Shown here: positions 1-62,600 of the stretch, piece after piece
Layout of the letters: every line of letters begins with the position of its first letter
How positions within the stretch are numbered: position 1 is the first letter of the stretch
DNA from: Trueperaceae bacterium
GTDB taxonomy: Bacteria; Deinococcota; Deinococci; Deinococcales; Trueperaceae
Direction: 5' to 3'
DNA length: 64,000 nt
Assembly (NCBI GenBank): GCA_965213925.1
Contig: OZ243927.1
Location: 3,648,001 to 3,712,000, forward strand
Program-made: the position numbers and the translations under genes
The notes under the pieces: generated by a model
Told to the model about the DNA's origin: nothing
What the model saw: the letters and a program-made list of their open reading frames with translations, nothing else
Databases searched by the model: none

Positions 1-1643
1 AAGCCAGCAGGCGTCTGACCGATGAAGACCGAGGCTTGGTTGTCGAGCGTACCCGTGCGCCCCGGCGTCGCGACGAACTCGAAGGTTTTGCTCTCGTTCG
101 CCTCCAAGGTAACGGGGATGACGAGGTCGCCCTCTAAACCCAACCCCTGCTGCGGCGACTCGCGCAGTTCGAAGGAGACGGTGCGTCCCAAGGGGTTCGT
201 CACGCGCACGGTAAAGCGCGTCTCTTGACCCTCCAAAGCCGTCTCGGTCTCGGCACGCTTTTCGACCAGGATGAGGCGTCGCGTGAGCGTGTCAGGCGCG
301 GCCACGTCACCCACAGAAGAGGTCAGCCGCGCCGTAAACTCGCCCGTTTCCTCCGCGCCGAAGCGCACGGAGGCTTCGTAGGTGTGCGTCACAGCGTCGC
401 CCGCGGCTAAGGTGCCTTCGAAGAGCGGTGGCTCTAAAGGCTCCAACCACTCGGGCGGCAGGTCGCTCAAGGTGTAGGAGACGCTTTCGTCGCTGTCGTG
501 GCTCACGGTCAGAGAGACCGTAACGACTTCGCCGGGCAAGACCTCGTCTAAGTCGAGGTCTCTGGTCAACATCACTGCAGCTTGCGCTTCGGGTTCCGGC
601 GTCGGCTCGGGTTGCGGCGTTATAGGTTCTGGCGTCACCGGCTCTGGGTCCGGCTCGGGCTCCAGTTCCGTCCCGGTAGTCTGCTCCAAGACGTAGCGCA
701 CCTGCCCGCCTCCAAAGCCAAAGTCGACCCGCGTCCCCTCACCTCTTGCGCCGTCCGTCTCGATGTCGACGAGCCTATACTCGCCCGGCACCTCCAGCGT
801 GACGGTGCGTTCGCTGTAGCCTGTGATGCGGACGGGAATATCTAAAGGATTGCCCGCCGTATCCACCACCTCGGCGACGACGGGCTCAGGGTAGAGCGTC
901 TTCGTCGCGACGGTGTTGGAGTACTGATACGCGCCTTTGGGTTGACGGAGGTAGACGGTGTAGGTACCGGCCTCGTCGAACTCCCAGACCTGCCACGCCA
1001 AGTCCTCCGAGACGGGCAAGCTGCGCTCGCTGCCGTCCGCCATGACGACCTTGGCCTCTAGCTCGCCCGCGCCGTCGCCGTCGTAGAGCGCGTAACGCGC
1101 GGGCACGCCCTCGCGGGGCAGCTTGGCTTGAAAGGCTTGCGTCCACTCGCCCCCGCGCACGTCGAAGAGTTCGACGCCTTCGGCGAAGCGGAGCGAGCTG
1201 ACGCTCGGGTCGGGTGTCGTTACGCGGATGATAAAGGCGTTTTTGCCGAGCCCGGTGAAGCGGCTGCGCAGGGTGTACGCGCCCTTCTCCAAGGTGCCTT
1301 CGAAGAGCGTTTCCCACTCGTGTTGCTCCACTTCGTAGCGCCTTTCGGCAATGGTGTCGCCATCTTCTAAAACGAACGCTCCGACGAGCGGCGTATCGCC
1401 GTAGCGTTCGTCGCCCAGCTCCTCGCGCCCGTCCAAGGCGGCGCGGTAGTCGTCCGGGTCGAAGCCGGGGGAGTAGATTTCGAGCTTCACCGGGCTGTCC
1501 TGACCGAGCGAGAGCGTCATCACGACCTCTTCGATTTCCCAGCCCAAAGCGTCGCCGGGCACGATGCCTTTGACCGTGTTGTTACTCTCATCAGCGAGCG
1601 CGAAAGAAGCAAATAAGGTCAGAAATAGATATAAGTACTTCAC
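1..1643 (-). CDS. Large secreted DUF11/Ig-like repeat protein, 3' part outside the window
   Basis: Not in the ORF track because it runs off the window. The GTG at 1643 overlaps the TGA of the upstream gene (GTGA). It reads MKYLYLFLTLFASFALA|DESNNTVKG...YSPGFDPDDYR, a signal peptide followed by Ig-like strands and a PEP-rich linker near 580-665. Confidence 0.8.
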   Translation of the reverse strand, partial: MKYLYLFLTLFASFALADESNNTVKGIVPGDALGWEIEEVVMTLSLGQDSPVKLEIYSPGFDPDDYRAALDGREELGDERYGDTPLVGAFVLEDGDTIAERRYEVEQHEWETLFEGTLEKGAYTLRSRFTGLGKNAFIIRVTTPDPSVSSLRFAEGVELFDVRGGEWTQAFQAKLPREGVPARYALYDGDGAGELEAKVVMADGSERSLPVSEDLAWQVWEFDEAGTYTVYLRQPKGAYQYSNTVATKTLYPEPVVAEVVDTAGNPLDIPVRITGYSERTVTLEVPGEYRLVDIETDGARGEGTRVDFGFGGGQVRYVLEQTTGTELEPEPDPEPVTPEPITPQPEPTPEPEAQAAVMLTRDLDLDEVLPGEVVTVSLTVSHDSDESVSYTLSDLPPEWLEPLEPPLFEGTLAAGDAVTHTYEASVRFGAEETGEFTARLTSSVGDVAAPDTLTRRLILVEKRAETETALEGQETRFTVRVTNPLGRTVSFELRESPQQGLGLEGDLVIPVTLEANESKTFEFVATPGRTGTLDNQASVFIGQTPAG

Positions 1644-4456
1644 GGGTATCTCCAGCGGGCGTCAGGGTCAGTGAGACCGATAGGGGCGTTTAGGTCATAC
1701 GTCAGCGTTTGCTCGCCCTCGAACGCCTCGAAGGTGAAGCGGCGCGGAGCCGCGCCGGGGACGGGGTCGCTGACGACCAGCTCGGGGAGGGGCTCGGGGC
1801 TCGAGAGGGTTAGCACCACGCGCACCCCTTCGCCCCCGTCCGGCTGGGGCAGCGCGATGAGGCGCTTCTCCACGCTGAGCGGTCCGAAGCGCAAGGTCGT
1901 CTGCCGGTAGGCGCGAATCGTCCCCGCTGGCGCAACTAGGGGAAAGTCGCTCACCGTCAGCCCTTGTAAGACCGCGCGGTGCTGGTAGCCCTCCCTCAAC
2001 CCTTCGGGATGCGGCAGCGGCGCAAAGGGCGCGGACGCCGCGTCCAGCGTCACGGACCACGCGCCCGGCGTGAGGTCGCGGAAGGTGTAGCGCCCCTCGG
2101 CGTCGGTCAGCGTCTGCCAACCGTTCGGGAGCAGCACCCGTGCGCCGGGCAGGGGAACGTCGAGGCCGCGCTCGTACGCGCAGTTCTGATTGACGTCTAA
2201 GTAGACGCGCCCGCTCAAGAGGGCGTCGGGGCGACCTAAGACGCGCTCGTCTAACGCGACGTCCACTTGCACCTCGTCGCTCACCACGACAACGCCTGAA
2301 ACCGCACCGTCGCCGAACGTGCCGCGGGCGTACGCCGTATTGCGCAGCGGGCTGCTCGCGCCGGGCTGCACGCTGAGGGCGTACGACACGCTCACGCGGT
2401 CGCGCCCGTCCGCGCTGCCTTTAGGCTCTAAAAGGAAGTCCGGCTCATTCGTCAAGTCCCACACCAGTTCGTCGCCGCGCGCTTGAGGTTCGGTGGCACT
2501 TTCGTTCGCGCCGCTTTTCACGACCGCGCTGCCCGCCACGTACGCCGTGCGCTCAGGTGGGGTGTCGATGAGGGTCAGCTCGAGCGCCACGTCGTTCGGG
2601 TTCGAGACCGTGACCGTGTAGTGCAGCGTGTCGCCGATACGCACGACCTCTTCTTCCACCGTCTTTTCGATGTTGAGGCTCAGGAGGGGAAAGGCGTGCG
2701 TGACCTCGTTCGAAGCCTTAGGCTCGGGCAACTCCTGCGCCGCCACGCGGAAGCGGTTACGCAACACAAAGCGCGCGCTGTCAGGCACATCTTCGGGCAT
2801 CTTCACGCCGAGCGTGAACGTCACGCTTTCGCCCGCGCCCAATTGCGAAACGCGCCAGGTCACGGTGCGCGTGTCCGCGTCGTACGTGCCTCCGTCCGAC
2901 GCGGACACGAAGGTCGGCGCAGGCACGCCCAGCGCGCTCCCTCCGTCCACATTTTCGAAGCCCTGCAAGGTGTCGCTGACGCGCACGTCATTTAGGTCGA
3001 AGTCGTGGTCGTTCGTCACGCTGAGCGTGTAGGTGAGCAACTCCCCTTCTCCGACCGACCCCTCCGGCTCGGCGCGTTTGACGAGGTCCAGTTCGGGACC
3101 CGCCGCGACGACCTCGTCTACGCGGTCGTAGGTGAGGTTCGTCCTGCCCGTCTGCGAAGTCGCCGTGAGGGTGACGGTGAAAGGCTGAACGAGGTCATTC
3201 GCCGTCACGCAGAACTGAAAGTTGCGGCGTTCGCCCGCGCGCAGCTCGAGGGTGCGCGGCAACGGCTCGCCACCTACACTTCTAAGCGTGCCCGTGACGC
3301 CCGCAGGCAAGCCGCTGAAGGAGACCTCGTAACGGTCTCGAGCGGTGCTCGCGTTCTCCAGCGTGTGCGTGAAGCAGCTCGCCTGAGCGTAGACGAGCCG
3401 CCCGGTTTGGGTGTCGTCGGCGCTGCCTTCGCCACCAGGATTCGCCCGAGGGTTGCCGCCCGGTCCTAAAAAGTGGAGGTTATCTCTAGTGACGTCGAAC
3501 TCGGCGCTGGCCTCGGCGGGTCCGCCGGGTCCGGTCGCGAAGGCGCGGTTCTGACGCGCGCCCGCCGCCGCACCAAAAGTGACGCGCAGGTCGAAGCGGA
3601 GAAAGGCCGCGCCGCCGACCGCGAGCGAATCGAGCCGCAGACGAACGCCGCGCACCGCCGCTGGCTCATTTTGCGTCCAGGTCGAGCCGTCCGAGTATTC
3701 GACCGTGCCTTGCGTCGCCGCCGCCGAGCCCGCCACAAAGGTGAGCCCGTCCAAGTTAGCGAGGTCGAAGTCGTCCGTGAGGACGGGACCGATAGAAGGC
3801 TGAGAGCCGTCATTGAGCAGGCGCACTTCGAAGCGTGCGGTGTCGCCGGGGCTCAAGGTAGGGCTCGAGACCGTCTTAAAGAGTTGCAGCGCCGAACCCT
3901 GGACGATCTGCACGAGCCCGTAGTTCTCCGCGTCCTCCTCGGCTGTCCCCTGACAGGTCGCGGCGGGCGAGAGCGTTTTATCGCCCGCCGCATCCGAGGG
4001 CGTCGCGACCTCTAGGATGAGCGCGGCGTCCGCGCCGCGCTCTAAGGTGAGCGACGAGACGGCCGTCTCGCCCGCGTCCAGGCGTCCGTTGCGGTTGACG
4101 TCCTCGTAGAGCGCGGTTTCGCTCGGCGTCCAGCCGCCTGCTCCTTGCGCTACGGACAGGTCGAAGGTGAAGCGGTCGTTACCAGCGTTCGTGAGCGTAT
4201 AGGGCAGATAGGCGCGCGCGCCCGCGCCCACGCTGACGCTTTGTCCCGGCGCGGCGGGCGTCCCGTTCGGCGTCAGATTAGGGGCGCAGACGGTCCGGAC
4301 CGTGGTGTCCACCTCGTTCGAGAGGTAGGTTTCGCCGTTCGCTTGCGCGCTCGCTTGGTTGCGGATAACCGTACCCGCGGGTGTGCCTGCGCCCCACGCG
4401 GCGGCGGCGATAAGCAGTGCCAAAATGCAGTGAATTGTCCTTTTCACGTGCGTCAT
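1640..4456 (-). CDS. Secreted DUF11-repeat protein with an SdrD-B-like C-terminal region
   Basis: Likely start MTHVKRTIHC at ATG 4456, followed by a signal peptide. Three complete K...D...N DUF11-type repeats (LQLFKTV, LDLVKRA, LNIEKTV), then a GRVYLDVNQN...TDAEGRYTF module. Confidence 0.85.
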   Translation of the reverse strand: MTHVKRTIHCILALLIAAAAWGAGTPAGTVIRNQASAQANGETYLSNEVDTTVRTVCAPNLTPNGTPAAPGQSVSVGAGARAYLPYTLTNAGNDRFTFDLSVAQGAGGWTPSETALYEDVNRNGRLDAGETAVSSLTLERGADAALILEVATPSDAAGDKTLSPAATCQGTAEEDAENYGLVQIVQGSALQLFKTVSSPTLSPGDTARFEVRLLNDGSQPSIGPVLTDDFDLANLDGLTFVAGSAAATQGTVEYSDGSTWTQNEPAAVRGVRLRLDSLAVGGAAFLRFDLRVTFGAAAGARQNRAFATGPGGPAEASAEFDVTRDNLHFLGPGGNPRANPGGEGSADDTQTGRLVYAQASCFTHTLENASTARDRYEVSFSGLPAGVTGTLRSVGGEPLPRTLELRAGERRNFQFCVTANDLVQPFTVTLTATSQTGRTNLTYDRVDEVVAAGPELDLVKRAEPEGSVGEGELLTYTLSVTNDHDFDLNDVRVSDTLQGFENVDGGSALGVPAPTFVSASDGGTYDADTRTVTWRVSQLGAGESVTFTLGVKMPEDVPDSARFVLRNRFRVAAQELPEPKASNEVTHAFPLLSLNIEKTVEEEVVRIGDTLHYTVTVSNPNDVALELTLIDTPPERTAYVAGSAVVKSGANESATEPQARGDELVWDLTNEPDFLLEPKGSADGRDRVSVSYALSVQPGASSPLRNTAYARGTFGDGAVSGVVVVSDEVQVDVALDERVLGRPDALLSGRVYLDVNQNCAYERGLDVPLPGARVLLPNGWQTLTDAEGRYTFRDLTPGAWSVTLDAASAPFAPLPHPEGLREGYQHRAVLQGLTVSDFPLVAPAGTIRAYRQTTLRFGPLSVEKRLIALPQPDGGEGVRVVLTLSSPEPLPELVVSDPVPGAAPRRFTFEAFEGEQTLTYDLNAPIGLTDPDARWRYP

Positions 4457-4538
4457 GCGGTGACCTCGTCCTCGCTGATGGAGGCGGAATAGAATAGGTG
4501 CGTCATAAAAATAGGTGATAGAGGGTGCGTAAGATACT

Positions 4539-4572
4539 CCCTGCCCCGGCACGAGAGCGTACCGGGGCAGGG
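4539..4572 (-). terminator. Stem-loop downstream of the 914-aa DUF11 gene (terminator or mRNA stabiliser)
   Basis: CCCTGCCCCGG-N12-CCGGGGCAGGG perfect 11-bp inverted repeat in the intergenic gap. Confidence 0.6.
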
Positions 4573-4581
4573 CGAGAGGGT

Positions 4582-7326
4582 TTACTGCACGGTCACTTCG
4601 AAGGTGAGGGTGACTTCCGCGTTGGCGGGGAAGGTGTCGTCGTCATCGTTCACGACGCCGTCGCCGTCCGTATCCACGTAGACGTAGATGCTCTCGCCTG
4701 CCTCGAGGCTGAGGGGGTCGCCTGTAGTGCCGTCGCCATTTTCGTCGTCTAGGTCGTCGGTGTAGGTCACGCCGTCCACGGAGTAGAGCAGCGTAGGCGC
4801 GGACGCGAAGCCGCTCGCGCTGGCGCTCACCGAGACGAAGTCTGTAAAGGCGGGCAAGGGGTCGGAGATGACGACCTCGGTGAGGTCGGCGTTGCCCAGG
4901 TTCTTAGCGACAACGGTGTAGGTGATGGTTTCGCCGGGCGCAGCCGTGGCTTTGTTCACCGATTTGTCGAGGCTCAGGTCGCCGCTGACTACGGTGGTGC
5001 GGTCGATGACAGAAGCCTGGGCGGTGTCCGTGTCGCCGGTGACAGAATCCGGGAAGGTCGCGGTTGCGGTGAGCGTTAAGACGTTGACGTCATCAGGGTT
5101 GTAACCCTGGGGCGCACTCACCCGGACGAAGAGGGACTGCGTGTCGCCGGGCTCGAGCGTCGCAGGCAGCGTGAGGCTCGAGTCGTTGAGCCCATAGAAG
5201 GTGGTGCCGTCATACGAATAGCTGTAGTCGAAGTCCACGCCGCTCTCGCTCTCCGTAAGGCTGATCGCGGTGAGGTCCCGGTTACCCGTGTTGGTGATCG
5301 TGTGCTCGTAAGTCACCGTGCCGGGCGAGGTGATGTCGCTGTCGCGGTCCGGCGAGAAGGTGAAGGTGTTAGCCTCGTTCACCGTGACGGTGTTGAGGTT
5401 GAAGGTCACGGGCGCGATATCGGGCGAGTCGATAGTCTGGTTGACGGTCGCCGTCTGCGGCGTCGCGCCGCTCGGCACGCTCACAACTGCGAAGACGGTG
5501 ATCTCTTCGTCCGGGTCGACCGAGCCGGTGTTCGTGATCGGGGTGAGCGCGTCCAGCTCAGCCTGGGTCACGGTGCCGTCGCCGTCTGCGTCTGGGTCGG
5601 TCGCGTAGTAGACCACGCTGACGGTCGTGGGTCCGAAGGTGACCGAGCCGTCCAGGGTGAACGTATCGCTGTTGCCGCCCGTATTCACCACGTCCATCGG
5701 GAAGACGACGATGTCGCTGGAGTCAGCGTCTTCGTTGACGCTGTTCGCATTGTCCACTCGCCCGTCGGTATCGTCAGCGACGATATCGTTACCGGCATCG
5801 TCGGCGTCTGCGTCGTTACCGAACGCCACGCCCGCGCCCACGATGTCGTTAATGGTGTTCGTAGTCGGGTCTGACGTGGAGCTGTCCGTGACTGAGGTCG
5901 CAGTGACGACGACGCTATGAACCACGTCACCGGTGTCGCCGCCATCATTATCGGTTGGCGTGTCGCCAGGAATCCGCACGCGGACGATGAAGTCGAAGGT
6001 TTCGCCTGCGCCTAGCGGTCCGGTATCCGGCACGCCGTCGCCGCCGGTCGGCAGCGCCGCGCCACTTGTCGAAAGGAGCTGGACGGTCGCGTCACTCGGT
6101 AGGTTGAGGTCGTCCGTATTCACTGTGAGGTTGAAGGTGTCGGTGTCGGTGCCTGTGTTCTGGACGGTATTGGTGAAGTCTACGGTGCTACCAGCGTTAG
6201 CGCTCGCGACAGTCTGAACGTCGCTGGGATCGCCATCAGGGTCGCCGTCTGGACCGAGTGCGACGCCGATGGAGGCTTGTACGTTGGTCGTAGCGGTGTT
6301 CGTCGTGATCGTTCTCGTCGTCCCAGCGTTGTTCGTGTAGGTGACGTCCGCGTCGTTATTGATGGAACCTGGCGTAGTCTTCGTGACGGTCACGGGGATG
6401 GTGAGGGTCACGCTCTGGCGGGCGGCGACGGTAGCGAAGGTCGCGGTGATTTCGGGTGTGGCTCCGGAGGTGTCTACGCTGACACTACCGCTCGTAGGGG
6501 AGGTAGTGGCGGGGTTGCTGGTGTCGTAGGAGACGCCACTAGGCAGCGTATCGCTAATCACAATGTTCGTCGCGTCGGCTGACCCCGTGTTCTCCACGGT
6601 GATGGTGTAGGTGAGTGAGCGCGCGCCGCTGGCGGGAACGGACGTCTGACTGACCGACTTGTTCGGGACGATCGCCGCGTCTTCTACGACGTTCGTCCGG
6701 TGGTAGTTGTTGTTGTCGACTTTGGTTGCATCGCCCTGGCTCGTGGCGACCGGGGTGGCGATGACGACGTCGTCGCTCGAGTCGGTCGTGTCGACGCCTG
6801 CCGGGACGTCATAAGCCATGATGAGCTTGCGCGTGTTGGCACCGTCCGTCGTCGTGGCGGGCAGCGTGACCTCGGTCACGGCGGTGTTTTCGCCGGACTG
6901 CAGCACACCGTCACCGTTGTCGTCGATGTAAAAGGTGATGTTGGCGGGCGTGACGTGGGTGGCGTCTGTTAGCGAGGTGTCTACGGTGCTCGTCAACTGG
7001 AAGGTGTCCGTGCCGTTCCCCGTGTTGGTGAGCGTGTAGGGGTAGTACACAGGGCTGCCGGGGATGGCGTCGCGGGTCTGACCGGGCGCGGCTACGTTGC
7101 CGTCAGGCGTCACGCTCACGCCGTAGACCTGCTGCACGGTGGTGATGACCAGGTCGGAGTTGACCGACTGCGGGTTGCCCGCCGAGTCGATATAGTCGGC
7201 GGTCGCCTGGTTCTCAATCTGGGTGCCTGCGGCGGTGCCGGCGGGGGTCTGTGTCTGCGCGAACGCTTGCGGCGCGAGGACCAGAGCCGCGAAGAGCAGC
7301 GCCAAGGCGGGGCGTATAGGTATCAT
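4582..7326 (-). CDS. Secreted acidic DUF11-repeat protein, candidate major filament subunit
   Basis: GGAGG RBS, signal peptide ending AFA-Q, repeated NTGN...DTF Ig-like modules, DUF11 motifs and DxDGDG calcium-binding-type loops. Confidence 0.9.
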   Translation of the reverse strand: MIPIRPALALLFAALVLAPQAFAQTQTPAGTAAGTQIENQATADYIDSAGNPQSVNSDLVITTVQQVYGVSVTPDGNVAAPGQTRDAIPGSPVYYPYTLTNTGNGTDTFQLTSTVDTSLTDATHVTPANITFYIDDNGDGVLQSGENTAVTEVTLPATTTDGANTRKLIMAYDVPAGVDTTDSSDDVVIATPVATSQGDATKVDNNNYHRTNVVEDAAIVPNKSVSQTSVPASGARSLTYTITVENTGSADATNIVISDTLPSGVSYDTSNPATTSPTSGSVSVDTSGATPEITATFATVAARQSVTLTIPVTVTKTTPGSINNDADVTYTNNAGTTRTITTNTATTNVQASIGVALGPDGDPDGDPSDVQTVASANAGSTVDFTNTVQNTGTDTDTFNLTVNTDDLNLPSDATVQLLSTSGAALPTGGDGVPDTGPLGAGETFDFIVRVRIPGDTPTDNDGGDTGDVVHSVVVTATSVTDSSTSDPTTNTINDIVGAGVAFGNDADADDAGNDIVADDTDGRVDNANSVNEDADSSDIVVFPMDVVNTGGNSDTFTLDGSVTFGPTTVSVVYYATDPDADGDGTVTQAELDALTPITNTGSVDPDEEITVFAVVSVPSGATPQTATVNQTIDSPDIAPVTFNLNTVTVNEANTFTFSPDRDSDITSPGTVTYEHTITNTGNRDLTAISLTESESGVDFDYSYSYDGTTFYGLNDSSLTLPATLEPGDTQSLFVRVSAPQGYNPDDVNVLTLTATATFPDSVTGDTDTAQASVIDRTTVVSGDLSLDKSVNKATAAPGETITYTVVAKNLGNADLTEVVISDPLPAFTDFVSVSASASGFASAPTLLYSVDGVTYTDDLDDENGDGTTGDPLSLEAGESIYVYVDTDGDGVVNDDDDTFPANAEVTLTFEVTVQ

Positions 7327-7367
7327 CTTTCCTCCATAAAATGTGGGATTAAATTGACGTCGCGGGC

Positions 7368-7895
7368 TTAGAGCACCCGCACGCGGTAGACGAACGTGCG
7401 CGCCTGACCCGGACCTAGTTCGCTGAGCAACTCCCAGCGCACCGCGTCGTACTGCGCGGGCTCGGCCGCCACCTCTTGCGCGTCGCCGTTTTCGTCCATA
7501 ACGGTGACGGTCGGCGCGGCGCTAAAGCTTTCACCTTCGTCGGCGCTAAAGGTGAGGTCGGACCCTCCTTCGCCCGTCGCCGACGCCGCGAGGTAGTGCG
7601 TGCGCTCGGGCACCGGACCCGTCGCCGCGACGCCTTCAGGGATCACCGTTTCGCTCTCGTTCTCGAGCGTGAGGTGATACTCCAGAACCTGACCCGGCTC
7701 GGCGACGTCGGTAGGGACGAGCTGTTCCTCGACTGTGCCGTCCTCTAATATCACCTCCGTCACAAGATAGCTCTCCAAGGTGACCGCCAACGGCGTTTGC
7801 GCCTGGGCGACGCCCATGGACATCCCTACGACGCCAAAAATAAGGGCGCAACAAAAGATGGGGCAGAAACCTAGAGCGGACCGGTAGTGTTGCAT
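7368..7895 (-). CDS. Small secreted single-domain DUF11-like protein
   Basis: GAGGAGG RBS, signal peptide (AQAQ) and PGQVLEYHLTLEN...FVYRVRV pattern. Confidence 0.85.
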   Translation of the reverse strand: MQHYRSALGFCPIFCCALIFGVVGMSMGVAQAQTPLAVTLESYLVTEVILEDGTVEEQLVPTDVAEPGQVLEYHLTLENESETVIPEGVAATGPVPERTHYLAASATGEGGSDLTFSADEGESFSAAPTVTVMDENGDAQEVAAEPAQYDAVRWELLSELGPGQARTFVYRVRVL

Positions 7896-8339
7896 GTAGC
7901 CTCCTCTTCATCAGGTGCACGTCAAATTTTGAGGGTATAGAAAACTCGTATAAAGTGCACTGACAAGCAGCTTACAAAGTACCGCTGTACCTCCTTGGTG
8001 GCATCTTCCACACGTCAAGTGCGCGCACACGCCGGATGTCTAAAACCTCACAAGAGGTAAAAAAATGTGAAAAATTAACGGTATCGAGGGTTACTCAGGG
8101 GGTTTTTTGGCAAAGGTAAGCGCTGAAGAGGCGATAAAACGAGGAAAAGTTTCAGGTGACTCTATGCCGAGAGGTCGTTCTTCCCACCTCTTCTGATGTA
8201 GTGCACCTGTACTTATACGGACACCTCACGCTAAAGAGGTTCGTCGCCAGCTTTCGCTACTCCGGCTCGGTGAGCGGCTAGCGTGACGCGAAGCGTTTGC
8301 ACAGCGTCAAACAGGGCGAGAAATACGGCGGACAGCAAC

Positions 8340-8370
8340 AAAAAAGCGCCACGTTCCAGACGCGGCGCTT
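8340..8370 (-). terminator. Intrinsic terminator of the SLH gene
   Basis: Minus strand reads AAGCGCCGCGT-CTGGA-ACGTGGCGCTT followed by a T run. Confidence 0.7.
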
Positions 8371-8488
8371 ACAGAAGATGCTATGAACATAAGGCTGTTT
8401 CGGTTCAGTGCTTAGCGCAAAACCTTAGAGAGGCTCAACCTCGAGCAGAACCAACTTTACATGGCTACAACACAGCCTGATTCACTAG

Positions 8489-9568
8489 CTAAAAACGCAG
8501 GTTGACGCCCACCGTGAACGCGGCGTCCGCGCTGCTCACGGGCGCGAAGCCGTAGCTCGTGATGAGCTGCCCGAACAAACCGACGCGCGGCGTCACGAAG
8601 TATTCCGCGCCGAAGGGGACCTCGAGCAAGAGCGCGTCGCCGTCAGGCCTTAGCGTGTAGCCGACGCCTAAGCCGCCGTAGAGGTCGAGGTCGGCGGTGA
8701 GCGCGTCTAAACGCAGGAGCGTGTCCACGCTGAAACGCAACTCGTCGTCGCCGCCGTTAAAGGTGAGGCGGCTTGCGAAGCCGACGGGACCGATGAGGTT
8801 ATCGTAGCCAGCTTGCACGCTCAAGTGGACCTCGCCCGCCGTCGAGATGACGCCGGGCGCGACGCCGAGGTAGAAGGGGTAGAGAGGTCGCTGGCTGAGG
8901 CGCACGCGGCTCACGCCGCCATTATCTTGGCTGTTATTCTGAACAACCGGACCGCCCGGTGTGCCCTCTCGAGCTGCCTGCCGCGCCGCGCTCCAAGCTG
9001 AGCGCTCACCCTGCGAACCGTCCTCTAAGGTGGCGGGGAATTCCTCCGTACCGCGCTCCACGTTGAGAACCCTCTCGAGGGCGACTAAGCGCCCCTCGAG
9101 CCTGCGCACATAGTCGAGCGACGCCGCGTCGCTCAGCGCCGCTTCCAGGCTCTCCGTGCGCTCTAAGAGGCTAGTGCGTCCTAAAGAGACCTCGTCGCGG
9201 CGCATCCGCTCCTCGAAGCGTGCGCCTGGCACCGCGCCTAAAATCTGGTCGGTGTAGTCGATGAGCCGCGCCGCGACCAAGGCGAGTTCGTAGCGCGACG
9301 CGCTCTGCTCGCCCCGGTAGTCGCCCCCCGGATAGCCCGTCAAAACGCCCAGCCGGGCGAGCGCGTCGACCGCCGGGTAAGCCCAATGAGAGGCCTGTAC
9401 GTCATTAAACTCGTCCGGGGCGGGACCTAGTGCGCCCGCTGGGAGCGGCGCTTGCGCGCTCACGCCCGTCATCAAAAGCGCGGCGAGAATCGCAGCAGAG
9501 AATACGCCGAGACGCCCAACAATGTACCTTGACTTGCGCCCATTTTCACTGCACTCACCTGCTCGCAT
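8489..9568 (-). CDS. S-layer homology (SLH) domain protein with coiled coil and C-terminal outer-membrane beta-barrel (SlpA/OmpM-like architecture)
   Basis: FNDVQASHWAYPAVDALARLGVLTGYPGG...SRYE SLH motif; amphipathic strands ending VGVNLRF; GGAGG RBS before ATG 9568. Confidence 0.85.
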   Translation of the reverse strand: MRAGECSENGRKSRYIVGRLGVFSAAILAALLMTGVSAQAPLPAGALGPAPDEFNDVQASHWAYPAVDALARLGVLTGYPGGDYRGEQSASRYELALVAARLIDYTDQILGAVPGARFEERMRRDEVSLGRTSLLERTESLEAALSDAASLDYVRRLEGRLVALERVLNVERGTEEFPATLEDGSQGERSAWSAARQAAREGTPGGPVVQNNSQDNGGVSRVRLSQRPLYPFYLGVAPGVISTAGEVHLSVQAGYDNLIGPVGFASRLTFNGGDDELRFSVDTLLRLDALTADLDLYGGLGVGYTLRPDGDALLLEVPFGAEYFVTPRVGLFGQLITSYGFAPVSSADAAFTVGVNLRF

Positions 9569-9711
9569 TATGACCTCCACTTCAGAGTATGCCAGTTTAA
9601 CAGGGCGATGATGTGTTGCATGGTGAAGTGTAGATGAGGAACTCTTCATGGAGCGTTGGCGCGGGGAGATCAGGGCCGCCTCCGCATAGCGGTCTCCACA
9701 CAACAATAGTT

Positions 9712-21646: not shown

Positions 21647-21683
21647 AGGCGCAATGCAAGCGTTGTCAGGTCCACTGCAACCT

Positions 21684-21763
21684 TGTAAGAGGCGCTGACC
21701 CACCTAACACATCCCATCGGGCGCTAGGACAGGTGGTGAGCCAAGTGGCGCGACCGGCTTACA
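21684..21763 (+). ncRNA. c-di-GMP-II riboswitch (variant 3' junction GCGACCGG)
   Basis: P1 TGTAAG/CTTACA, AGGCGCTGA, stem CCACCT/AGGTGG, loop GGGCGCT able to pseudoknot with GGCGC, and GAGCCAAGT; located in the 5' UTR of the S8 gene. Confidence 0.75.
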
Positions 21764-21783
21764 GAGAGTAGCAAGAAAGGATC

Positions 21784-23109
21784 GTGTATTACGCTATGCA
21801 GTGTAACCCTAAAAAACCCGTCACCAAATTTTTGAGGACGTGGCTGAGAGCCACGCTCCCTCCCCTACTCGCCACCGCGCTGGTCGCTTGCGGCGGTCTA
21901 ACCGTCAAAGAGGTCACGTCACCCCAGGGCGCGCCGGAGCGCTTCGACTACTCGCTCAACGTGGACGTTGCGGTGGACGCGAAACGAGCGGACGTCGAAG
22001 CGCTTTATGGCGGCGAGGTCGTCGTGTGGCGACCCGAAGCGGGCTTCGCGGTGCTCGGTTTGAACGATACGGGAGAGTTGAGCACGCTCAGCAAGAAACG
22101 GAGGAATAAGAACGTAGTCAAGTCTCCCGAGGTGATGGCGAGCGGCGCTCAAAGCGGCGGGCGCTCAGCTTGGAGCGGTGGGCGCTCGGCCTGGAGTGGC
22201 GGACGTTCGGCTTGGAGCGGCGGCGAACCGACGACGTTCACTGAGAACCTCAAGTTTTGGGACCAGATCAATTTAGCCGATGCTCAGCGGACGGCGCGCA
22301 ATCTAGGGCGCGGCGTCAAGGTCGCCGTGATCGACACCGGCATCGACCTCAACCACCCAGGCTTCGAGGGCAAGCTGGCTCCCACTCACGAGTGGAAAGA
22401 CTTCGTCGACGGAGACCGCTATCCGCAAGAGGTCGAAGGCTCCAACTACGGCCACGGCACAGGCGTCGCGAGCGTCGTCATTCAAGTCGCGCCCCGCGCG
22501 ACCATCCTGCCCTTACGCGCCCTCAGACCCGACGGGAGCGGCGACGTAACTGACGTGACTGCCGCGGTGGACTGGGCCATTGCGCAAGGGGCAGACATCA
22601 TCAACCTTTCGCTTGGCACGGTGGACTACGACCGCTCCATCCAAAGGATGGTCGAATACGCGGCGCGTAAAAAGGTCTACGTGGTCGCCTCAGCCGGGAA
22701 TAGCGGCGACCGGCGCGTCACCTACCCGGCGGCTAACGGCGATGACGGTAGCGGCGACACCAAGAATTTCGTTCTGGGCGTAGGTAGTGTCAACCAACGG
22801 GACAAGAAGTCGAGCTTCTCGACCTACGGGGACCAGCTCGAGCTGCTCGCTCCCGGTGAGAACATGCTTACGCTCGCGCCTGAACGCAAGGTTGCTTTCT
22901 GGAACGGCACCTCTTTCGCCGCGCCAGTTGTCTCGGGTGCCCTCGCCCTAGCTTACGGTGAAAGGCTGGACAGCCGCGACGAATACGAGAAGCTCGCTGA
23001 CCACATTAACTCCTCGGCGAAAGACATCTCTGATCAAAATCCAGACATCACTCTGGGCTTCGGACGCCTCGACCTCAGGAGCTTCCTTAGAGATGAGCTA
23101 GACCTCTAA
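21784..23109 (+). CDS. Lipoprotein S8 (subtilisin-family) serine protease
   Basis: Lipobox LVAC; catalytic triad motifs VIDTG, GHGT and GTSFAAP. Confidence 0.92.
   Translation: MYYAMQCNPKKPVTKFLRTWLRATLPPLLATALVACGGLTVKEVTSPQGAPERFDYSLNVDVAVDAKRADVEALYGGEVVVWRPEAGFAVLGLNDTGELSTLSKKRRNKNVVKSPEVMASGAQSGGRSAWSGGRSAWSGGRSAWSGGEPTTFTENLKFWDQINLADAQRTARNLGRGVKVAVIDTGIDLNHPGFEGKLAPTHEWKDFVDGDRYPQEVEGSNYGHGTGVASVVIQVAPRATILPLRALRPDGSGDVTDVTAAVDWAIAQGADIINLSLGTVDYDRSIQRMVEYAARKKVYVVASAGNSGDRRVTYPAANGDDGSGDTKNFVLGVGSVNQRDKKSSFSTYGDQLELLAPGENMLTLAPERKVAFWNGTSFAAPVVSGALALAYGERLDSRDEYEKLADHINSSAKDISDQNPDITLGFGRLDLRSFLRDELDL
22153..22224 (+). repeat. 21-bp coding tandem repeat, (SGGRSAW)x3 + SGG
   Basis: Three copies differing only at synonymous positions. 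Confidence 0.9.
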
Positions 23110-23491: not shown

Positions 23492-25276
23492 ATGACCCGC
23501 GCGAGCGTTCAAATTGAACAAGAGCAGAGCGTCAGCCACAAGGTTGACGAGCTTAACGCGCTCGCTTGGGAGCTGCGCCGCACCGACACAAAGCGCTCGC
23601 TCGTGCTCGCTGAGGAGGCGCTCCGGCTCGCCCGGGCTGAGGGGTATGACGGCGGTCAGGCGTACAGCCTGCTCGCGCTAGGCTACGGCGCGATGCGCTC
23701 GTCCGACCTGCGAGCGGCGCAGACGAAAGTGCAGCGCGCCGCCGAGTTCTTCGGCGCTTCCGGTGATCAAGAGGGCAGTCGCCGAGCGCTCAACACGTTA
23801 GGCATTATCAATGGACAGTCCGGCAACTACGCGGGAGCACTTAAAACGTTTCTCACCTTGCAGCGTTTGTGCGCCGCAGCAGGCGAGCCTAAAGCGCTAG
23901 CGGACGCGCTCAACAACACGGGCATCGCGTATTTTCATCTCGGCGACCACACCAACGCCCTGAACTACCACTTTAGAGCGCTAGACGCTTTTCGCGAAGC
24001 AGCGTATTCACCTGGCGAAGTCACTACGTTTATCAACATCGGCATGGTCTACTTCGAGCGAGGTCACTTTGGGGAGGCGTTGGGCGCGTTTTTACAGGCG
24101 AAAAACGGCGAGGTCGAGGACAAGTACACGCACGCCCTCTTGCGTAACCACCTCGGGCGCACCTATTTGCAGCTCGGTCAGTTCGAACAAGCGCTCGTCC
24201 ACAACCAAGAGAGCTTAACCCTTATGACCGCCCTAGACGACCGCTTGGGCGCGAGCTACGCCCAAGACGACCTCGCGGCGATCTACGTCAAGCTCGGGCA
24301 GACGGAGCAAGCCGAAGCGTGTCTGACGCAGAGCTTAGGGACCAAAAGGGGCGCGGGCGACATCAAAGGGGAAGCGGAGGTCTGCTTGCAGCTCGGCGAC
24401 CTCTACTTGCGGATGGGAAGGCTCGAGCTTGCCTTAGACACGCTGCACGAAGGGCTCGACAACGCGGAAAAGAGCGATGCGGGAGACGAAGTCCGCAAGG
24501 CGCACCGCGCGCTCGCCGCTGTATACAAGAAAAACCGCCAGTTTCGCGAGGCTTGCTTGCACTTAGAAAAGCACGAAGACTTCAGCCAAGAAGCCTTCAA
24601 CCGCGACTCCGACCTCCGGCTCCAAGCCTTGCGCGTACAGCATGAGGTCGAGCAGACCGAGCGCGAGAAGGAACTCTACCGCCTTAAAAACGTCGAGCTT
24701 GCGCAGGCGGTCGAGGCGCTCCGCGAGCTGACCGCGTCGCTACAAGCAGCCAACGACGAAAAAGCCACCTTGCTGAGCCAGTTGGAGAAGCAGTCATGCG
24801 AGGACGGTCTCACGGGTCTTTACAACCGCCGCTACTTGGACGAGTCGTTAGCACAAGCCTTCGCAGACGCCAAGCGTTACGGCCGCGAACTGAGCGTCGT
24901 CGTATGCGACATCGACCACTTCAAGCGCGTCAACGACACCTTCTCGCACCAGATGGGCGACGTGGTGCTTAAAGAGGTCGCGCGGCTTCTTAAAAGCGGC
25001 GTTCGTCAAGGCGACACCGTCGCGCGTTACGGCGGTGAGGAATTCGTCATCGTGCTGCCCGAAGCGTGCGCGCAAAGCGCAGCGCATATCGTCGAGCGCA
25101 TCCGCCAGACGATTCAAAACCACCCCTGGCACACCTTCCACCCCGGGCTTAAAATCACGATGAGCGCCGGTCTCTCGGACGACCTCTCCTCCGAAAATTA
25201 CGAAAAGTTAGTCGGCACTGCTGACAAAAAGCTCTACGAGGCGAAGCGCGGGGGCAGAAATCGGCTCGTCGTGTAA
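23492..25276 (+). CDS. TPR-repeat diguanylate cyclase (GGDEF)
   Basis: GGAGGAG RBS, multiple TPRs, coiled coil, DGLTGLYNRR, DIDHFKRVND, I-site RQGD and active-site GGEEF. Confidence 0.95.
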   Translation: MTRASVQIEQEQSVSHKVDELNALAWELRRTDTKRSLVLAEEALRLARAEGYDGGQAYSLLALGYGAMRSSDLRAAQTKVQRAAEFFGASGDQEGSRRALNTLGIINGQSGNYAGALKTFLTLQRLCAAAGEPKALADALNNTGIAYFHLGDHTNALNYHFRALDAFREAAYSPGEVTTFINIGMVYFERGHFGEALGAFLQAKNGEVEDKYTHALLRNHLGRTYLQLGQFEQALVHNQESLTLMTALDDRLGASYAQDDLAAIYVKLGQTEQAEACLTQSLGTKRGAGDIKGEAEVCLQLGDLYLRMGRLELALDTLHEGLDNAEKSDAGDEVRKAHRALAAVYKKNRQFREACLHLEKHEDFSQEAFNRDSDLRLQALRVQHEVEQTEREKELYRLKNVELAQAVEALRELTASLQAANDEKATLLSQLEKQSCEDGLTGLYNRRYLDESLAQAFADAKRYGRELSVVVCDIDHFKRVNDTFSHQMGDVVLKEVARLLKSGVRQGDTVARYGGEEFVIVLPEACAQSAAHIVERIRQTIQNHPWHTFHPGLKITMSAGLSDDLSSENYEKLVGTADKKLYEAKRGGRNRLVV

Positions 25277-46655: not shown

Positions 46656-46675
46656 GACATTCCTCCCGGAATAAC

Positions 46676-46748
46676 TTCGGCCGGTTGCGCTACTAGCTCC
46701 ATCTTGCCCAAGCGCCCAAATACGGGTCAAGACTTCATCGCGTCCGAA
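46676..46748 (-). ncRNA. c-di-GMP-II riboswitch
   Basis: Minus strand TTCGG-ACGCGATGAA-GTCTTGACCC-GTATTTGGGCGCTT-GGGCAAGAT-GGAGCTAGTAGCGCAACCGG-CCGAA matches the class II consensus, including the GCGCT/AGCGC pseudoknot; about 20 nt upstream of the start codon. Confidence 0.9.
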
Positions 46749-46803
46749 AGGAACCCTCCGCGTGGGTGAATTTGGGGTGGCGGAGGTGCGTTCAACTAAA
46801 ATT

Positions 46804-47586: not shown

Positions 47587-47768
47587 CCAAACCACCCTTT
47601 CGTGGAATGGATGCAACCACCTTGTAGAGCAGGTATCATCTGGTTATAAACGCCCTCTTTCGAGGAAGCGCTGCTCGAGCACGCACATTCAAAGATGAAG
47701 TCCCGCTAGCTCTTCGAGCTGAGACTTGCGTGGTTCAAGCTCAGTAACGATAAAACCGATAGCTCCAT

Positions 47769-47844
47769 GTTCGGCCGGTTGCATCACTGGCTCCCCGAGT
47801 CCCATGATGCCCAGATAGGGAAGATCGGTTCATCGCCTCCGAAC
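47769..47844 (-). ncRNA. c-di-GMP-II riboswitch (downstream member of a tandem pair)
   Basis: GTTCGG-AGGCGATGAA...TATCTGGGCATCA...GAGCCAGTGATGCAACCGG-CCGAAC; the pseudoknot GCATCA/TGATGC covaries relative to the other copies. Confidence 0.88.
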
Positions 47845-48008
47845 GCCATAAAAAACGCTCGACCAGGGGCACTTAGCCCGGCTGCTCGAGTGAGGTTCGC
47901 ATTTGGAGGGTAGCTTAGAGGCTACGCTCTGTTTTAGGTATTCGCAGTCGCGGTGCCGAGAGAACTCTCGAGACCGGGTGAAACCTGCTCAACAAGCGAG
48001 TTATTCAC

Positions 48009-48082
48009 CCTCGGCCGGGTGCGCTACTAGCTCAGCTTGTTCCAAGCGCCCAGATACAGAACAAGCGTCGTCGCTTCCGAAG
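48009..48082 (-). ncRNA. c-di-GMP-II riboswitch (upstream member of the pair; variant GCACCCGG)
   Basis: CTTCGG-AAGCGACGAC-GCTTGTTCT-GTATCTGGGCGCTT-GGAACAAGC-TGAGCTAGTAGCGCACCCGG-CCGAGG. Confidence 0.85.
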
Positions 48083-48484
48083 TTGTTCAGGTTGCCCTGA
48101 ACTTGTATAGAGTGTAGCGTGACTTAGGCGTAGAGGATGTGCATCCGTCACATCAGGCGCGAGTCCGTTTTTTAGTTAGCGCAAGAGGGTTTGAGAGAAG
48201 TCTTGGATGAGAGGGTATCACCCTAAACCGTTAAGCGAAGGGGCTCGTTTTTTATCCTCGCCCGGACCAAGGAAACAAAAGTGGAGATTCTTTTGCGGCC
48301 CAGTTTATTCAGAAGGGCAGCAGGAGGATACCGGTGATTCGCCCTTTCCTCTTGCATCAACACGCCTAGCGTCCACACCCGCACCTATGGTATGCTTTTA
48401 CGTCTTATCGGCGCATGGCGCTTTAGCGTTTTAGCCCTGAAGTCGCGCCCTTTAACTCGCATTCATTCCACCGGAGGAATCAAG

Positions 48485-59356: not shown

Positions 59357-59686
59357 AGGGCTTAGTATACGGAGTGTGGACGCGGTTGGGGTGGATTGGC
59401 TTGCATTTTGTCATCAATTTTGTAAAAAAGCTCAGGAGTTGGTTCCCTTATTTTATCCGAGAACGCCGCGTCCACACCGCTATTTTCGCTTTCAGTTAGG
59501 TGCGAACGGCTCGAGCCTGTTGAGCAGGTGTCGCCAACTTCACATGAAGCTGTGTCCTTAAACCGTACGCTTTGGCAGAATTACACGCCATTTTTCAGCG
59601 TATACTCCTCCATATTCATCTTTGAAGCGGTGTGTGTGAGAGAAAGCGTCAGTTTAGATGCCAGAAACGGAATAGGAGGGGTAAGG

Positions 59687-62600
59687 ATGCCCGCGACCCT
59701 TAATCAGTTGCAGCAGTTCATCAAACGAAACCGCCAGGGAGCCGACGACCCCTTAGAGAACTTCGTTGGCTTTTTATTTGAGAAAGCCAGCCCCGACCTC
59801 TTGGAGATTTTCGACACGGAGAGCCTTCTAGCTGTCGGTAAAGGTGCGCTCTCTTTCATGCAGGACAAAGCGCCCGAAGAGGTGCGCGTGCGCGTCTACA
59901 ACCCGAGCTACGAGGCGGAGGGCTGGAAGACGCCCTACACCGCTTTGGAACTCACCCTCAAAGACCGCCCTTTCATCGTGGACTCGGTGCGCGCTGCCCT
60001 GCGCCGCAAGGGGTACGAAGTCTATCACCTCTTACATCCGATTTTGAGGGTCGAGCGTGAAGATGGCAGGGTCACAGACGTTGACATCGGGCAGGATGAA
60101 GATGAGGTCTTAGAGGCGTACGAGCTTTACCTCATCGAGCGCGAGGACGACGCGCAAGAGCGTGAATCATTAGAGGTCGCCATCCGAGAGGTTTTAGAAG
60201 ACGTCGTTTTAGCCACCGACGACTACCTGACTATGCGGGAGAAGACGGGGGAGCTTAAAGGGACGTTGGAGGACCTGCAAAAGTACGCCAAAAATCAAAA
60301 ACAAGCCGACGAGTTAGAGGAGTACACCGCCTTTATGAGCTGGCTGGCGGACGACAACTACGTCTTTTTGGGCTACCGCGAGTACGACATTATCGACCAA
60401 AACGGCACGCAGCACCTCGTCGTGGACCAGGATTCAGGCTTGGGCGTTTTGAGCAAGATGCAAGAGAGCGCCTACACCGAGCCCGTACCGCTCAGCGAAA
60501 TCCCGCAGGGGCTACGCGAGCGCGTCTTAGGCGGCAAAGTTTTGACCGTCACCAAAACGAACGCCGAGTCCACCGTCCACCGCCCCGCCCGCATGGACTA
60601 CGTCGGCTTGAAAAAGATAGCTGAGACCTGGCAGGTGCAGGGCGAACGGCGTTTCGTCGGGCTCTTCACCTCGAAAGCGCTCTCGACGTCCGTCGAAGAC
60701 ATCCCCATCTTGCGCCACAAGTTGCGCCTCGTTTTGGACAAAGACAAGGCGACCCCCGGCTCGCACGATTACAAGCGTATCGTCACGATTTTTAATTCAA
60801 TCCCGCGTGAAGAACTCTTCTGGAGCGACGCCTCGCAGCTCTATAAGGACATCCGCACCGTCATGGACACCGCCAAGGAGCGCGGCGTACGTTTAACCGT
60901 GCGCCCCGACCCACTCGCAAGAGGTCTCGCGGTCATGGTCATCATGCCCCGCGAGCGCTTTAACGCCGACGTGCGCCGCGAGATTCAGGCGTTTTTGGCG
61001 GATGAACTGGACGCCGAGCACGTCGATTATCAACTTGCGATGGGTGAGGACGAGGCGCAGGTGCGCTTTCACTTCTTCTTCACCACGAGTAAGAGCCAAG
61101 ACGACCTTCACATCGCTGAGTTGGAAGGAGAGGTCGCCGACCTCACACGCACCTGGAACGACCACCTCTTAGAGCGGCTGATGACGCAGAAGGGCGAGGC
61201 GGCGGGCAGGCGCTTGGCGGAGCGCTACGCGGACGCCTTCGACGAGCGGTACAAAGCGGATACCAGCAGCGCGGTCGCCCTGCGCGACATCGAGAACTTG
61301 GAGGCGCTAGGCGGCTCGCCCTATCTCGTGGACATCCTCAACCCTATCCACGGTTACGAGGGCGAAGAGGCGACGCAACTCAAGATTTATCACCAGGAGC
61401 GCACGCTCGTCTTGAGCGAAGTCTTGCCAATTTTGGAGAACCTGGGCTTCAAAGTCTTAGAGCAAATCTCTTACTACACGCGGGCGAGTAGTCAAGCCTC
61501 GAGCAAAAGTAGAGAGGTGCGCGGCATCGACATTTTCCGCGTGCAAGACCGCGCCGGCGAGATTATCGACGTACGCGAGCACGGCGAGCGGATTAAAGAG
61601 GCGCTCCTAGCGCTGCTCACCCAGAGCGCCGAGAGCGATACCCTAAACCGCTTAGTGCTCTACGGCAACCTCAGCGTACGGCAAGTCGCCCTTTTGCGAA
61701 CCCTGCAGATGTACTACGCCCAACTGAGTGCGGGGACGAGCCGGAGTTTCGTCGCCAGTGCGCTCCTCAACCACCCGAACGTCGCCAGCCTCATCTACCG
61801 CGCCTTCGACGTGAAGTTCAAGCCGAATGTAGGCGATAGAGAGGTGAAGTTAGACGAGGTCGAAGCGTCCTTTTCCGAGGCGCTGCAAGAGGTCGCCTCG
61901 TTGTCCGAAGACCAGACCCTGCGCGGGCTTTTTAACCTCGTCAGCGCGGCGGTGCGCACGAACTTCTTCTTGGACAAACCTTACATATCGCTCAAGCTCG
62001 ACTCTTCACAAGTCACCCGGATGCCCGAGCCGCGCCCCTTCTTCGAGATCGCCATGTCGAGCCCGACGGTCGAAGGCACACACCTGCGCGGCGGCAAGGT
62101 GGCGCGCGGCGGCTTGCGCTGGAGCGACCGCCCGGATGACTTTCGCACCGAAGTCTTGGGCTTGATGAAAACGCAGATGACCAAAAACGCGGTGATCGTG
62201 CCGGTCGGCTCGAAAGGCGGTTTCATCGTCAAGAACGCGCCTGATGACCGTGACGCTTTGCGCGAGTACGTGAGGACGCAATATAAGACCTATATTCACA
62301 GTCTTTTAGACCTCACCGACAACCGGGTGAACGGCGAAACGGTTCAGCCTGAAGGCGTCGTGGTCTACGACGAGCCCGACCCTTACTTGGTCGTTGCGGC
62401 GGACAAAGGCACCGCGACCTTCTCCGACCTCGCCAACGAGACCGCCGCCGAATACGACTTCTGGCTCGGCGACGCCTTCGCCTCGGGCGGCTCGCACGGC
62501 TACGACCATAAGGAAGAGGCGATTACCGCGAACGGCGCGTGGGAGTGCGTGAAGCGGCATTTCTATGAGATGGGAACGAACGTCTTTAAGCAGAGCGTCA

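Follow-up and report, generated by a model that had tools for sequence, protein, structure and literature searches.

A naturally split DUF11 domain in a Trueperaceae operon and its proposed role in a covalent head-to-tail fibre

Architecture of the operon and of gene 2

We analyzed a stretch of 64,000 nucleotides (nt) from a Trueperaceae bacterium (GenBank assembly GCA_965213925.1, contig OZ243927.1, positions 3,648,001 to 3,712,000), referred to here as the window. The minus strand of positions 1..7895 carries four co-directional genes, which are preceded by a leader of about 450 nt and a terminator-like hairpin at 8344..8370. Gene 1 (7368..7895) encodes a secreted protein of 175 amino acids (aa) and gene 2 (4582..7326), an uninterrupted open reading frame (ORF), a secreted protein of 914 aa. 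Gene 3 (1640..4552) is listed with 970 aa, but its translation probably starts at the ATG at 4456. Gene 4 (3..1643) overlaps gene 3 by 4 nt and is present with its first 547 codons, continuing past the start of the window. The gene 2 protein bears an Asn-containing beta-hairpin at its mature N-terminus, here called the donor, and a C-terminal DUF11 domain from which the corresponding hairpin is absent, here called the acceptor. The gene 1 protein is acceptor-only and the gene 3 protein donor-only. On the basis of sequence comparisons we propose, with a probability of roughly 0.6, that the gene 2 protein is the major subunit of a self-assembling covalent fibre in which the subunits are joined head to tail.

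The first-pass annotation of this DNA had described gene 2 as a DUF11 protein with one complete internal repeat and a C-terminal repeat that stops before the Asn strand, and had located the missing piece at the mature N-terminus. Profile scans recovered each of these elements. The domain identity is firm, with 85.2 bits for Pfam DUF11 (PF01345; cut-off 24.6) over three stretches of the protein and 90.8 bits for TIGR01451 (cut-off 24). The complete internal DUF11/CLIPPER domain (6277..6681, residues 216-350), which is also matched by DUF7619, contains K223 in the motif VPNKSV, D259 in VISDTLP and N324 in PGSINNDADVTY...TATTNV, and scanning of this piece alone (residues 213-347) covered positions 6-101 of the DUF11 profile. 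The C-terminal acceptor (4585..5001, residues 776-914) contains Lys788 in LSLDKSV (codon 4963..4965) and Asp822 in VISDPLP (codon 4861..4863) and ends after strand F with LTFEVTVQ*; scanned alone, it covered only positions 1-59 of the 114 positions of the profile. The donor hairpin (7126..7242, residues 29-67; Asn39 codon at 7210..7212) has the sequence AGTQIENQATADY...SVNSDLVITTV at residues 33-64. It is located behind a putative signal peptide (7258..7326, residues 1-23), which was read from the sequence and ends with ...QAFA before QTQ. A hairpin profile constructed from 29 relatives had its top match in gene 2 at residues 29-67 (61.6 bits) and its second-best match at residues 321-350, where the complete domain has its closing strands, with Asn39 aligned on Asn324. 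A contiguous Lys/Asp/Asn triad is therefore present in the internal domain, whereas the C-terminal domain is without it and the homologous Asn is N39.

A structural model of the gene 2 protein was calculated by AlphaFold2 (AF2) with an alignment of 89 sequences and showed a mean predicted local distance difference test score (pLDDT) of 89.1 and a predicted template-modelling score (pTM) of 0.51. In this model the C-domain consists of seven strands without the terminal hairpin, residues 36-64 form four short strands in a pattern that mirrors residues 320-350, and the signal-peptide region is a helix at residues 7-21 with low pLDDT. In addition, the sequence TPAGT just after the signal peptide matches the TTPGS loop of the intact domain. 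Taken together, the profile coverage, the hairpin alignment and the strand pattern of the model place the cut of the C-terminal domain in the F-G loop. The subunit hence combines an incomplete immunoglobulin (Ig)-like fold with an N-terminal donor segment.

Database comparisons with known structures added little to this picture. A sequence search of the PDB gave no match for the whole gene 2 protein and nothing meaningful for the C-domain, and 9IFR, the crystallographic DUF11 reference, was not retrieved; for the internal domain it gave only weak matches with E = 0.005-0.014 (intimin, AgI/II 6e3f and SPB1 4uzg). Foldseek with the 914-aa model found generic multi-Ig chains only (ciliary central-pair proteins, PrgB, alpha-2-macroglobulins) with template-modelling (TM) scores of at most 0.21, a result that is uninformative on the docking site of the hairpin. 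The protein also has three EF-hand-like DxDxDG loops at residues ~133-146 (DDNGDGVLQSGE), 578-594 (DADGDGTVTQAE) and 880-893 (DTDGDGVVNDDD), in line with a weak polcalcin match (E = 0.48). These loops probably bind calcium, like those of many adhesin stalks.

Conservation of the split and the partner genes

Conservation of the split in homologues had been named beforehand as a check of the proposal, and the split is indeed conserved. Among 173 members of the gene 2 family, 172 carry N39, 167 carry K788 and 170 carry D822 (two more have Glu at this last position), and the full triad is found in 164, which span about ten diderm phyla. The phyla seen include Deinococcota, Pseudomonadota, Nitrospirota, Spirochaetota, Thermotogota, Abditibacteriota, Lentisphaerota and others. 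The triad of the internal domain is retained in most of the same 173 proteins (K223 in 160, D259 in 162, N324 in 164), and the hairpin residues A33, I37, N39 and A41 are invariant across 89 relatives. In a set of 261 relatives the chain ends 3-4 residues past the last strand in 240 cases, and the median position of the hairpin Asn is 45 residues from the start of the ORF. We considered that gene 2 might be a pseudogene or a truncated gene, but this was rejected because the end point is kept in such a large fraction of the relatives. At residue 58 (codon 7153..7155), within an 'SN' motif of the second hairpin strand, the window protein has the sole Asp of the set, compared with Asn in 170 of the 173 relatives.

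The same arrangement was recovered by searches of different design. A near-length search returned 433 relatives, and most of the 120 listed have 860-960 aa and the same beginnings and ends; the best relatives among the matches listed derive from uncultured bacteria and Trueperaceae, with 44-48% identity. With a limit of E <= 1e-30, a profile search of 1.84 billion representatives identified 7354 proteins, generic DUF11 giants included. Its 140 new top matches comprised 93 proteins shorter than 1200 aa, 90 of which contain both the hairpin and the terminal C-domain. Related loci were gathered with a 10-sequence alignment; in the 79 genome loci fetched, 53 ORFs combine hairpin and terminal C-domain, or 54 with the window added. 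Judged from these sequences, the split pattern is far from what chance would produce.

Such subunits contain between one and about seven middle domains, corresponding to lengths of 323 to about 1120 aa. At the lower end stands a second family of about 320-345 aa with one middle domain and the same invariant Asn, Lys and Asp, for which 423 matches were found; among the 120 mini-subunit proteins listed, the majority have no precomputed Pfam domain. Five loci (L062, L070, L076, L077 and L029) contain a variant operon with pilin-sized subunits of 320-370 aa, consisting of hairpin, one domain and truncated C-domain. Here two paralogues are often located around a small dead-acceptor gene, and a gene for a protein of 1700-2000 aa with a hairpin comes next.

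The gene 1 protein of the window consists of one DUF11-like domain, which stops after strand F and lacks the N-terminal hairpin, the Lys and the Asp. A Pfam scan of this product gave no match, but the C-domain profile found it with 33 bits over residues 64-174 and TIGR01451 weakly (E = 0.0014); its neighbours in the protein atlas are DUF11-like hypothetical proteins of 164-181 aa. Within the gene 1 family the Asp822-equivalent position carries Asp in 3 of 41 members and the Lys788-equivalent position Lys in 6 of 41, while the fold markers P825 (40 of 41) and N809 (41 of 41) are kept. By these sequence criteria the gene 1 product is a predicted acceptor that is catalytically dead. Lacking Lys and Asp, it should bind hairpins without bonding, and it may cap the distal end non-covalently or act in the periplasm as a chaperone for hairpins.

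These small proteins bear on the question whether a bond is formed at all. The hairpin could complement the C-domain, in cis or in trans, without any covalent link, and Lys, Asp and Asn would then serve folding. The gene 1 protein suggests that the fold can accommodate a hairpin-type partner in the absence of Lys and Asp, the isopeptide bond is absent from some DUF11 domains (PMC12617251), and oligomers of BsaA from Clostridium perfringens are still resistant to sodium dodecyl sulfate (SDS) without the bond as long as they are unheated (PMC11580942). However, the triad is kept in major subunits across about ten phyla and yet is lost precisely in the small-protein family, and such opposite selection would be difficult to account for if no chemistry were involved. 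We regard complementation without a bond as very improbable.

Gene 3 encodes a signal peptide followed by a hairpin (AGTPAGTVIRNQA...LSNEVDTTV) and ends with a conserved ...TDPDARWRYP, as seen in an alignment with 12 relatives. The hairpin profile matched residues 55-88 with 25 bits, a terminal C-domain was not detected, and the further domain matches were DUF11 and SdrD_B in Pfam and RrgB_K2N_iso_D2 in NCBIfam. The hairpin Asn is retained in 37 of 45 proteins encoded at the gene 3 position. Outside Deinococcota these proteins have 1400-2500 aa, and most of them end with the motif NLWLS.GYN..GF.D.DL....Y...G.YLRLR.KFDE; among six third proteins scanned, two contain an OmpA domain instead of this barrel-end motif (E = 3e-14 and 2e-13). 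The gene 4 proteins of Deinococcota end in the same NLWLS...KFDE-type motif.

The part of gene 4 that lies in the window corresponds to the N-terminal part of a 1828-aa protein of the related locus L003 (E = 3.9e-150). Relatives of gene 4 have 1600-1800 aa, and their C-terminal end is a large predicted outer-membrane beta-barrel. Pfam barrel matches in the anchor proteins were found under threshold only. An AF2 model of the last 520 aa of the L003 protein, based on 27 sequences, showed 30 consecutive strands (pLDDT 81.5, pTM 0.68), and its best matches in the PDB were LptD (E = 8e-9), FimD, PapC, MtrB and TonB-dependent receptors, all of them large outer-membrane barrels. We propose that the gene 4 protein may act as an anchor or a pore.

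In the Deinococcota loci (window, L003, L001 and L020) the anchor protein of other phyla is apparently divided between two genes, which in the window share the 4-nt overlap at 1640..1643. Gene 4 encodes a separate signal peptide and a conserved start of the type GIVPGD.LGWEI...LEIYSPGFDPDDYR, and the last domain of gene 3 contains a Lys (LSVEK) and a DP.P motif. It is conceivable that a second split joint connects the products of genes 3 and 4.

Some proteobacterial and Abditibacteriota operons (L052, L046) encode extra adhesin-like proteins with CshA_NR2, SpaA_3 and SdrD_B matches, which end in an acceptor domain and are candidate tip adhesins.

Assembly between chains or closure within one chain

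According to the first-pass annotation, the N-terminal hairpin of one subunit completes the C-terminal domain of the next, and this idea is favoured by three lines of computational evidence. The first is the gene order. A small acceptor-only ORF is located directly upstream of 41 of the 54 major ORFs (5 of the other 13 lie at a contig edge), and a hairpin-bearing large ORF follows downstream of 37; none of 45 downstream ORFs contains a terminal acceptor domain. An acceptor-only or donor-only protein is unable to close on itself and therefore needs a partner in trans. The second line is provided by natural tandem fusions, Nitrospirota proteins of 3400-3900 aa: L061 (L061:121-10563, 3481 aa), L039 (L039:4977-15290, 3437 aa) and P0274 (3865 aa). 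They consist of about four fused units sized like the major subunit, with 2-4 junctions each, and at the junctions the next hairpin begins 0-7 residues after the C-domain, for example ...LTFGVQI followed by AAGTPAG..VDNQTSATY. The third line is that a DUF11/DUF7927 Pfam match crosses all three fusion junctions tested. In L039 the fusion takes the place of the third gene, following a small and a major gene that are separate from it, and ends in dockerin-like repeats.

Operons, fusions and junction matches speak for complementation between chains rather than for closure within one chain. In the latter case the hairpin would be inserted into the C-domain of its own chain, and the domain would be circularly permuted around about 700 inserted residues. 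The Lys-Asn bond would then close each monomer covalently into a loop, giving a very stable adhesin or envelope protein that stands alone and forms no polymer. This alternative has some support. In the single-chain AF2 model the hairpin has a pLDDT of 92-96 and a low-confidence hinge precedes the C-domain at residues 780-782, a combination that fits self-docking within the model. AF2 monomer models tend, however, to satisfy intermolecular contacts in cis. The geometry would permit closure at least for the mini-subunits, and CnaA-type domains that are nested and discontinuous are known from pilins, e.g. GBS104-like_Ig with residues 137-211 and 587-717 (PMC12617251). On the other side, the acceptor-only and donor-only proteins of the operon are incapable of closing in this way, the fusions join a C-domain to the hairpin of the next unit with normal DUF11 connectivity, and the variable number of middle domains suits a rod better than a ring. 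We therefore consider closure within one chain unlikely.

Besides the high confidence of the hairpin in the single-chain model, several further results weigh against a fibre built between chains. No small upstream gene was detected for 13 of the 54 major ORFs and no hairpin-bearing downstream gene for 17 of them. Only one of the junction-spanning matches exceeded the gathering score (25.4 compared with 24.6 bits), the others reaching 16.7-22.1 bits. The fusions are rare, with 2 cases in 79 loci and 1 among the 140 new top representatives, and a search for longer homologues yielded 32 matches with zero further tandem fusions. Mutual information, calculated with average product correction for 222 non-redundant sequences, revealed no covariation between hairpin and C-domain. 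The hairpin shows too little variation, and phylogeny dominates the signal; the strongest long-range partners of the hairpin were in domain 1 (Q66 with G105, and L59/I61 with G145-N147). The evidence for a barrel comes from the relative L003, the window stops before the corresponding part of gene 4, and the TM-scores of that model are low (0.25-0.35, with FimD and PapC at 0.29-0.35). Finally, a secretion or usher gene was not recognised in the proteins scanned.

The expression signals concern the amount of the gene 2 product. The first-pass annotation had taken a strong ribosome-binding site and a hairpin at 4539..4572 as signs of a highly abundant major subunit, and both features withstood analysis. 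The sequence GGAGG (7331..7335, minus strand) was read 4 nt before the ATG of gene 2. The stem-loop behind the gene (4539..4572, minus strand) has a 15-bp stem, a folding energy of -40 kcal/mol and z = -6.4, and is without a U-tail. It is not confined to the window: in 22 of the 35 loci tested, the RNA that separates the major gene from its downstream neighbour reaches z <= -3.4 on folding (30 simple shuffles each as controls). The stem-loop probably sets the subunit ratios, either as an attenuator or by stabilising the mRNA, and together with the ribosome-binding site it suggests that the gene 2 product is made in excess, as expected for a major subunit. An Rfam scan of the 450-nt leader found no riboswitch, and a sigma-70 promoter scan of 4300-8600 gave 0 sites.

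These signals also bear on a more modest use of the joint. Hairpin and C-domain might connect chains only once or a few times, either in a stalk of fixed length consisting of an anchor, one or a few major units and a cap or adhesin, or in small closed head-to-tail rings. Homopolymerisation is a prediction from sequence, and the fusions hold about four units only. In relatives, DUF11 fibres made of one giant chain are known, for instance GhlA with 6596 aa (bioRxiv 10.1101/2025.08.19.671072), and the need may thus be just for a long stalk. Excess production of the major subunit, as indicated by the stem-loop and the ribosome-binding site, points in the other direction, as does the existence of mini-subunits of about 300 aa, which match the size of pilins. 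Moreover, nothing visible blocks self-addition of the major subunit, since its donor and its acceptor are of one and the same family profile. We assign little probability to a joint of this limited kind and favour a head-to-tail polymer. An S-layer protein was considered as well and rejected: with one donor and one acceptor per subunit, chains and not sheets are expected.

Directly upstream of the operon, at 8489..9706 on the minus strand, a porin-like protein with an SLH domain is encoded, and the terminator-like hairpin at 8344..8370 belongs to this gene. Profile scans of its product gave E = 3e-8 for SLH and 35 bits for por_somb, the latter under the cut-off. From its sequence it is a predicted outer-membrane tether of the kind known from Deinococcota-type diderms. 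Elsewhere in the window there are four c-di-GMP-II riboswitch aptamers (46670-46754, 47764-47849 and 48004-48087 on the minus strand and 21679-21768 on the plus strand), which scored 52-76 bits, above the gathering score; none of them is located at the fibre operon. The aptamer at 21679 lies just upstream of a gene for a mycosin-like subtilisin (21784..23109), which is followed by a gene for a GGDEF diguanylate cyclase (23492..25276). A further very large ORF of 1491 aa (59528..64000, plus strand) is still open at the end of the window.

Proposed fibre and comparison with known systems

In the mechanism that we propose, Sec export and cleavage of the signal peptide would yield a gene 2 chain with a spare N-terminal beta-hairpin (residues ~29-66, with Asn39). 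At the C-terminus this chain would present a DUF11/CLIPPER (CnaA-like) domain with strands A-F, K788 and the catalytic D822, from which the closing hairpin is absent. The hairpin of one subunit would enter the open C-domain of the next and restore the full domain, which would bring the new N-terminus beside the C-terminus of the partner. An intermolecular isopeptide bond between Lys788 and Asn39 would follow, with the help of Asp822 and with no enzyme involved. The donor-only gene 3 protein, which is fused to the barrel in other phyla and accompanied by the barrel of gene 4 here, would terminate the chain and tie the fibre to the outer membrane, and the free hairpin at the far end would be occupied by acceptor-only proteins, namely the small gene 1 protein and, in some phyla, the adhesin-like proteins. 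We infer from this a surface fibre with the polarity acceptor-only tip or cap, n major subunits and donor-only, barrel-anchored base, a logic as in chaperone-usher and sortase pili.

More tentatively, and at slightly less than even odds, the operons may represent a widespread and previously unrecognised class of covalent surface fibres of diderms, with subunits that are natural tag-and-catcher proteins, a dead acceptor as chaperone or cap, and a donor-only anchor with a barrel of about 30 strands that is perhaps also the passage for the fibre. If this is true, double-membraned bacteria possess a new route to build a pilus or stalk, covalent, enzyme-free and encoded by an operon of three or four genes, which occurs across many environmental phyla. 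Several cultured strains carry it as well, among them Meiothermus hypogaeus DSM 23238 (L020), Deinococcus caeni NBRC 101312 (L001), Methylomicrobium lacus (L053) and Photobacterium angustum ATCC 25915 (L059). The proposed fibre would also account for the constant length and ends of the "DUF11 repeat proteins" of about 900 aa.

The closest engineered parallel is the SpyTag/SpyCatcher pair, in which an isopeptide domain has been divided into two parts, a tag with the strand and a catcher with the other residues, which react spontaneously. That system is man-made and mostly derived from CnaB, whereas the split of gene 2 is natural, and since both halves reside on one gene 2 chain the product would be a polymer. 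If the proposal holds, the gene 2 family is a natural counterpart of this technology and offers hundreds of sequence-diverse pairs, some of them from thermophiles and radiation-resistant bacteria, which could be used as parts for protein ligation and biomaterials.

Within its own family the C-terminal domain of gene 2 differs from the described type by chain topology. For DUF11 (CLIPPER) an intramolecular Lys-Asp-Asn isopeptide bond has been demonstrated by crystallography (PDB 9IFR, K715/D748/N806; PMC12617251). The internal domain of gene 2 belongs to the same Pfam family, has the same triad and is an ordinary member, whereas the C-terminal copy has its Asn strand at the opposite end of the chain. 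In the CLIPPER survey the terms 'truncated' and 'strand swap' occur nowhere, and 'incomplete' is used twice on other matters (PMC12617251). A split DUF11 polymer is likewise not described in the accessible part of a 2026 review of bacterial surfaces (PMC13721041), and no description was found in the full-text literature, with subscription-only papers outside the scope of this search.

Compared with the pili of diderm and monoderm bacteria, the gene 2 system shares the design but not the machinery. Chaperone-usher pili also fill an incomplete Ig fold with the N-terminal extension of the next subunit and have an acceptor-only tip and a terminating last subunit (PMC13721041), and sortase pili are also covalent and composed of tip, shaft and base. 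In the gene 2 system, by contrast, the lock is predicted to be autocatalytic, and the predicted barrel is fused to the last subunit or encoded beside it. PapD-like chaperones and PapC/FimD ushers were not found by Pfam in genes 1-4 or in 13 proteins of related loci. The independence of sortase claimed by the first-pass annotation agrees with our scans: there is no LPXTG at the C-terminus of gene 2, whose relatives end alike, which led us to reject a sortase substrate, and no sortase was detected among the nine neighbouring ORFs scanned, the remaining window not having been scanned.

The nearest precedents in mechanism are two systems with other folds, neither of them from a diderm bacterium. 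For BsaA of Clostridium perfringens, modelling and mutants indicated strand exchange combined with an autocatalytic intermolecular isopeptide bond: an Asn-bearing N-terminal segment enters the sheet of the neighbour and is locked by a Lys-Asn bond via an acidic residue of the acceptor, without sortase (PMC11580942). BsaA has a TasA/camelysin-like fold instead of the CnaA-like DUF11 fold, donates a single strand instead of a hairpin, is exported in a monoderm host by SipW and type IV pilus-associated secretion, and is not visibly a split copy of a known intramolecular isopeptide domain. Pfam returned only DUF11-type Ig families for gene 2 and none of the BsaA/TasA type, and by analogy the likeness appears to be one of mechanism and not of family. 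The archaeal thread of Sulfolobus acidocaldarius (Saci_0406) also uses donor-strand complementation by an N-terminal tail and a proposed intermolecular isopeptide bond, for which no enzyme is known (PMC9715654). There the alpha-amino group of Asp24 is bonded to Asn57 of subunit n+2, in another fold and an archaeal host and without a Lys-Asp-Asn triad (PMC9715654). Seen beside these two, the gene 2 system probably extends the principle of exchange and lock to a naturally split isopeptide domain and to a new class of diderm fibres.

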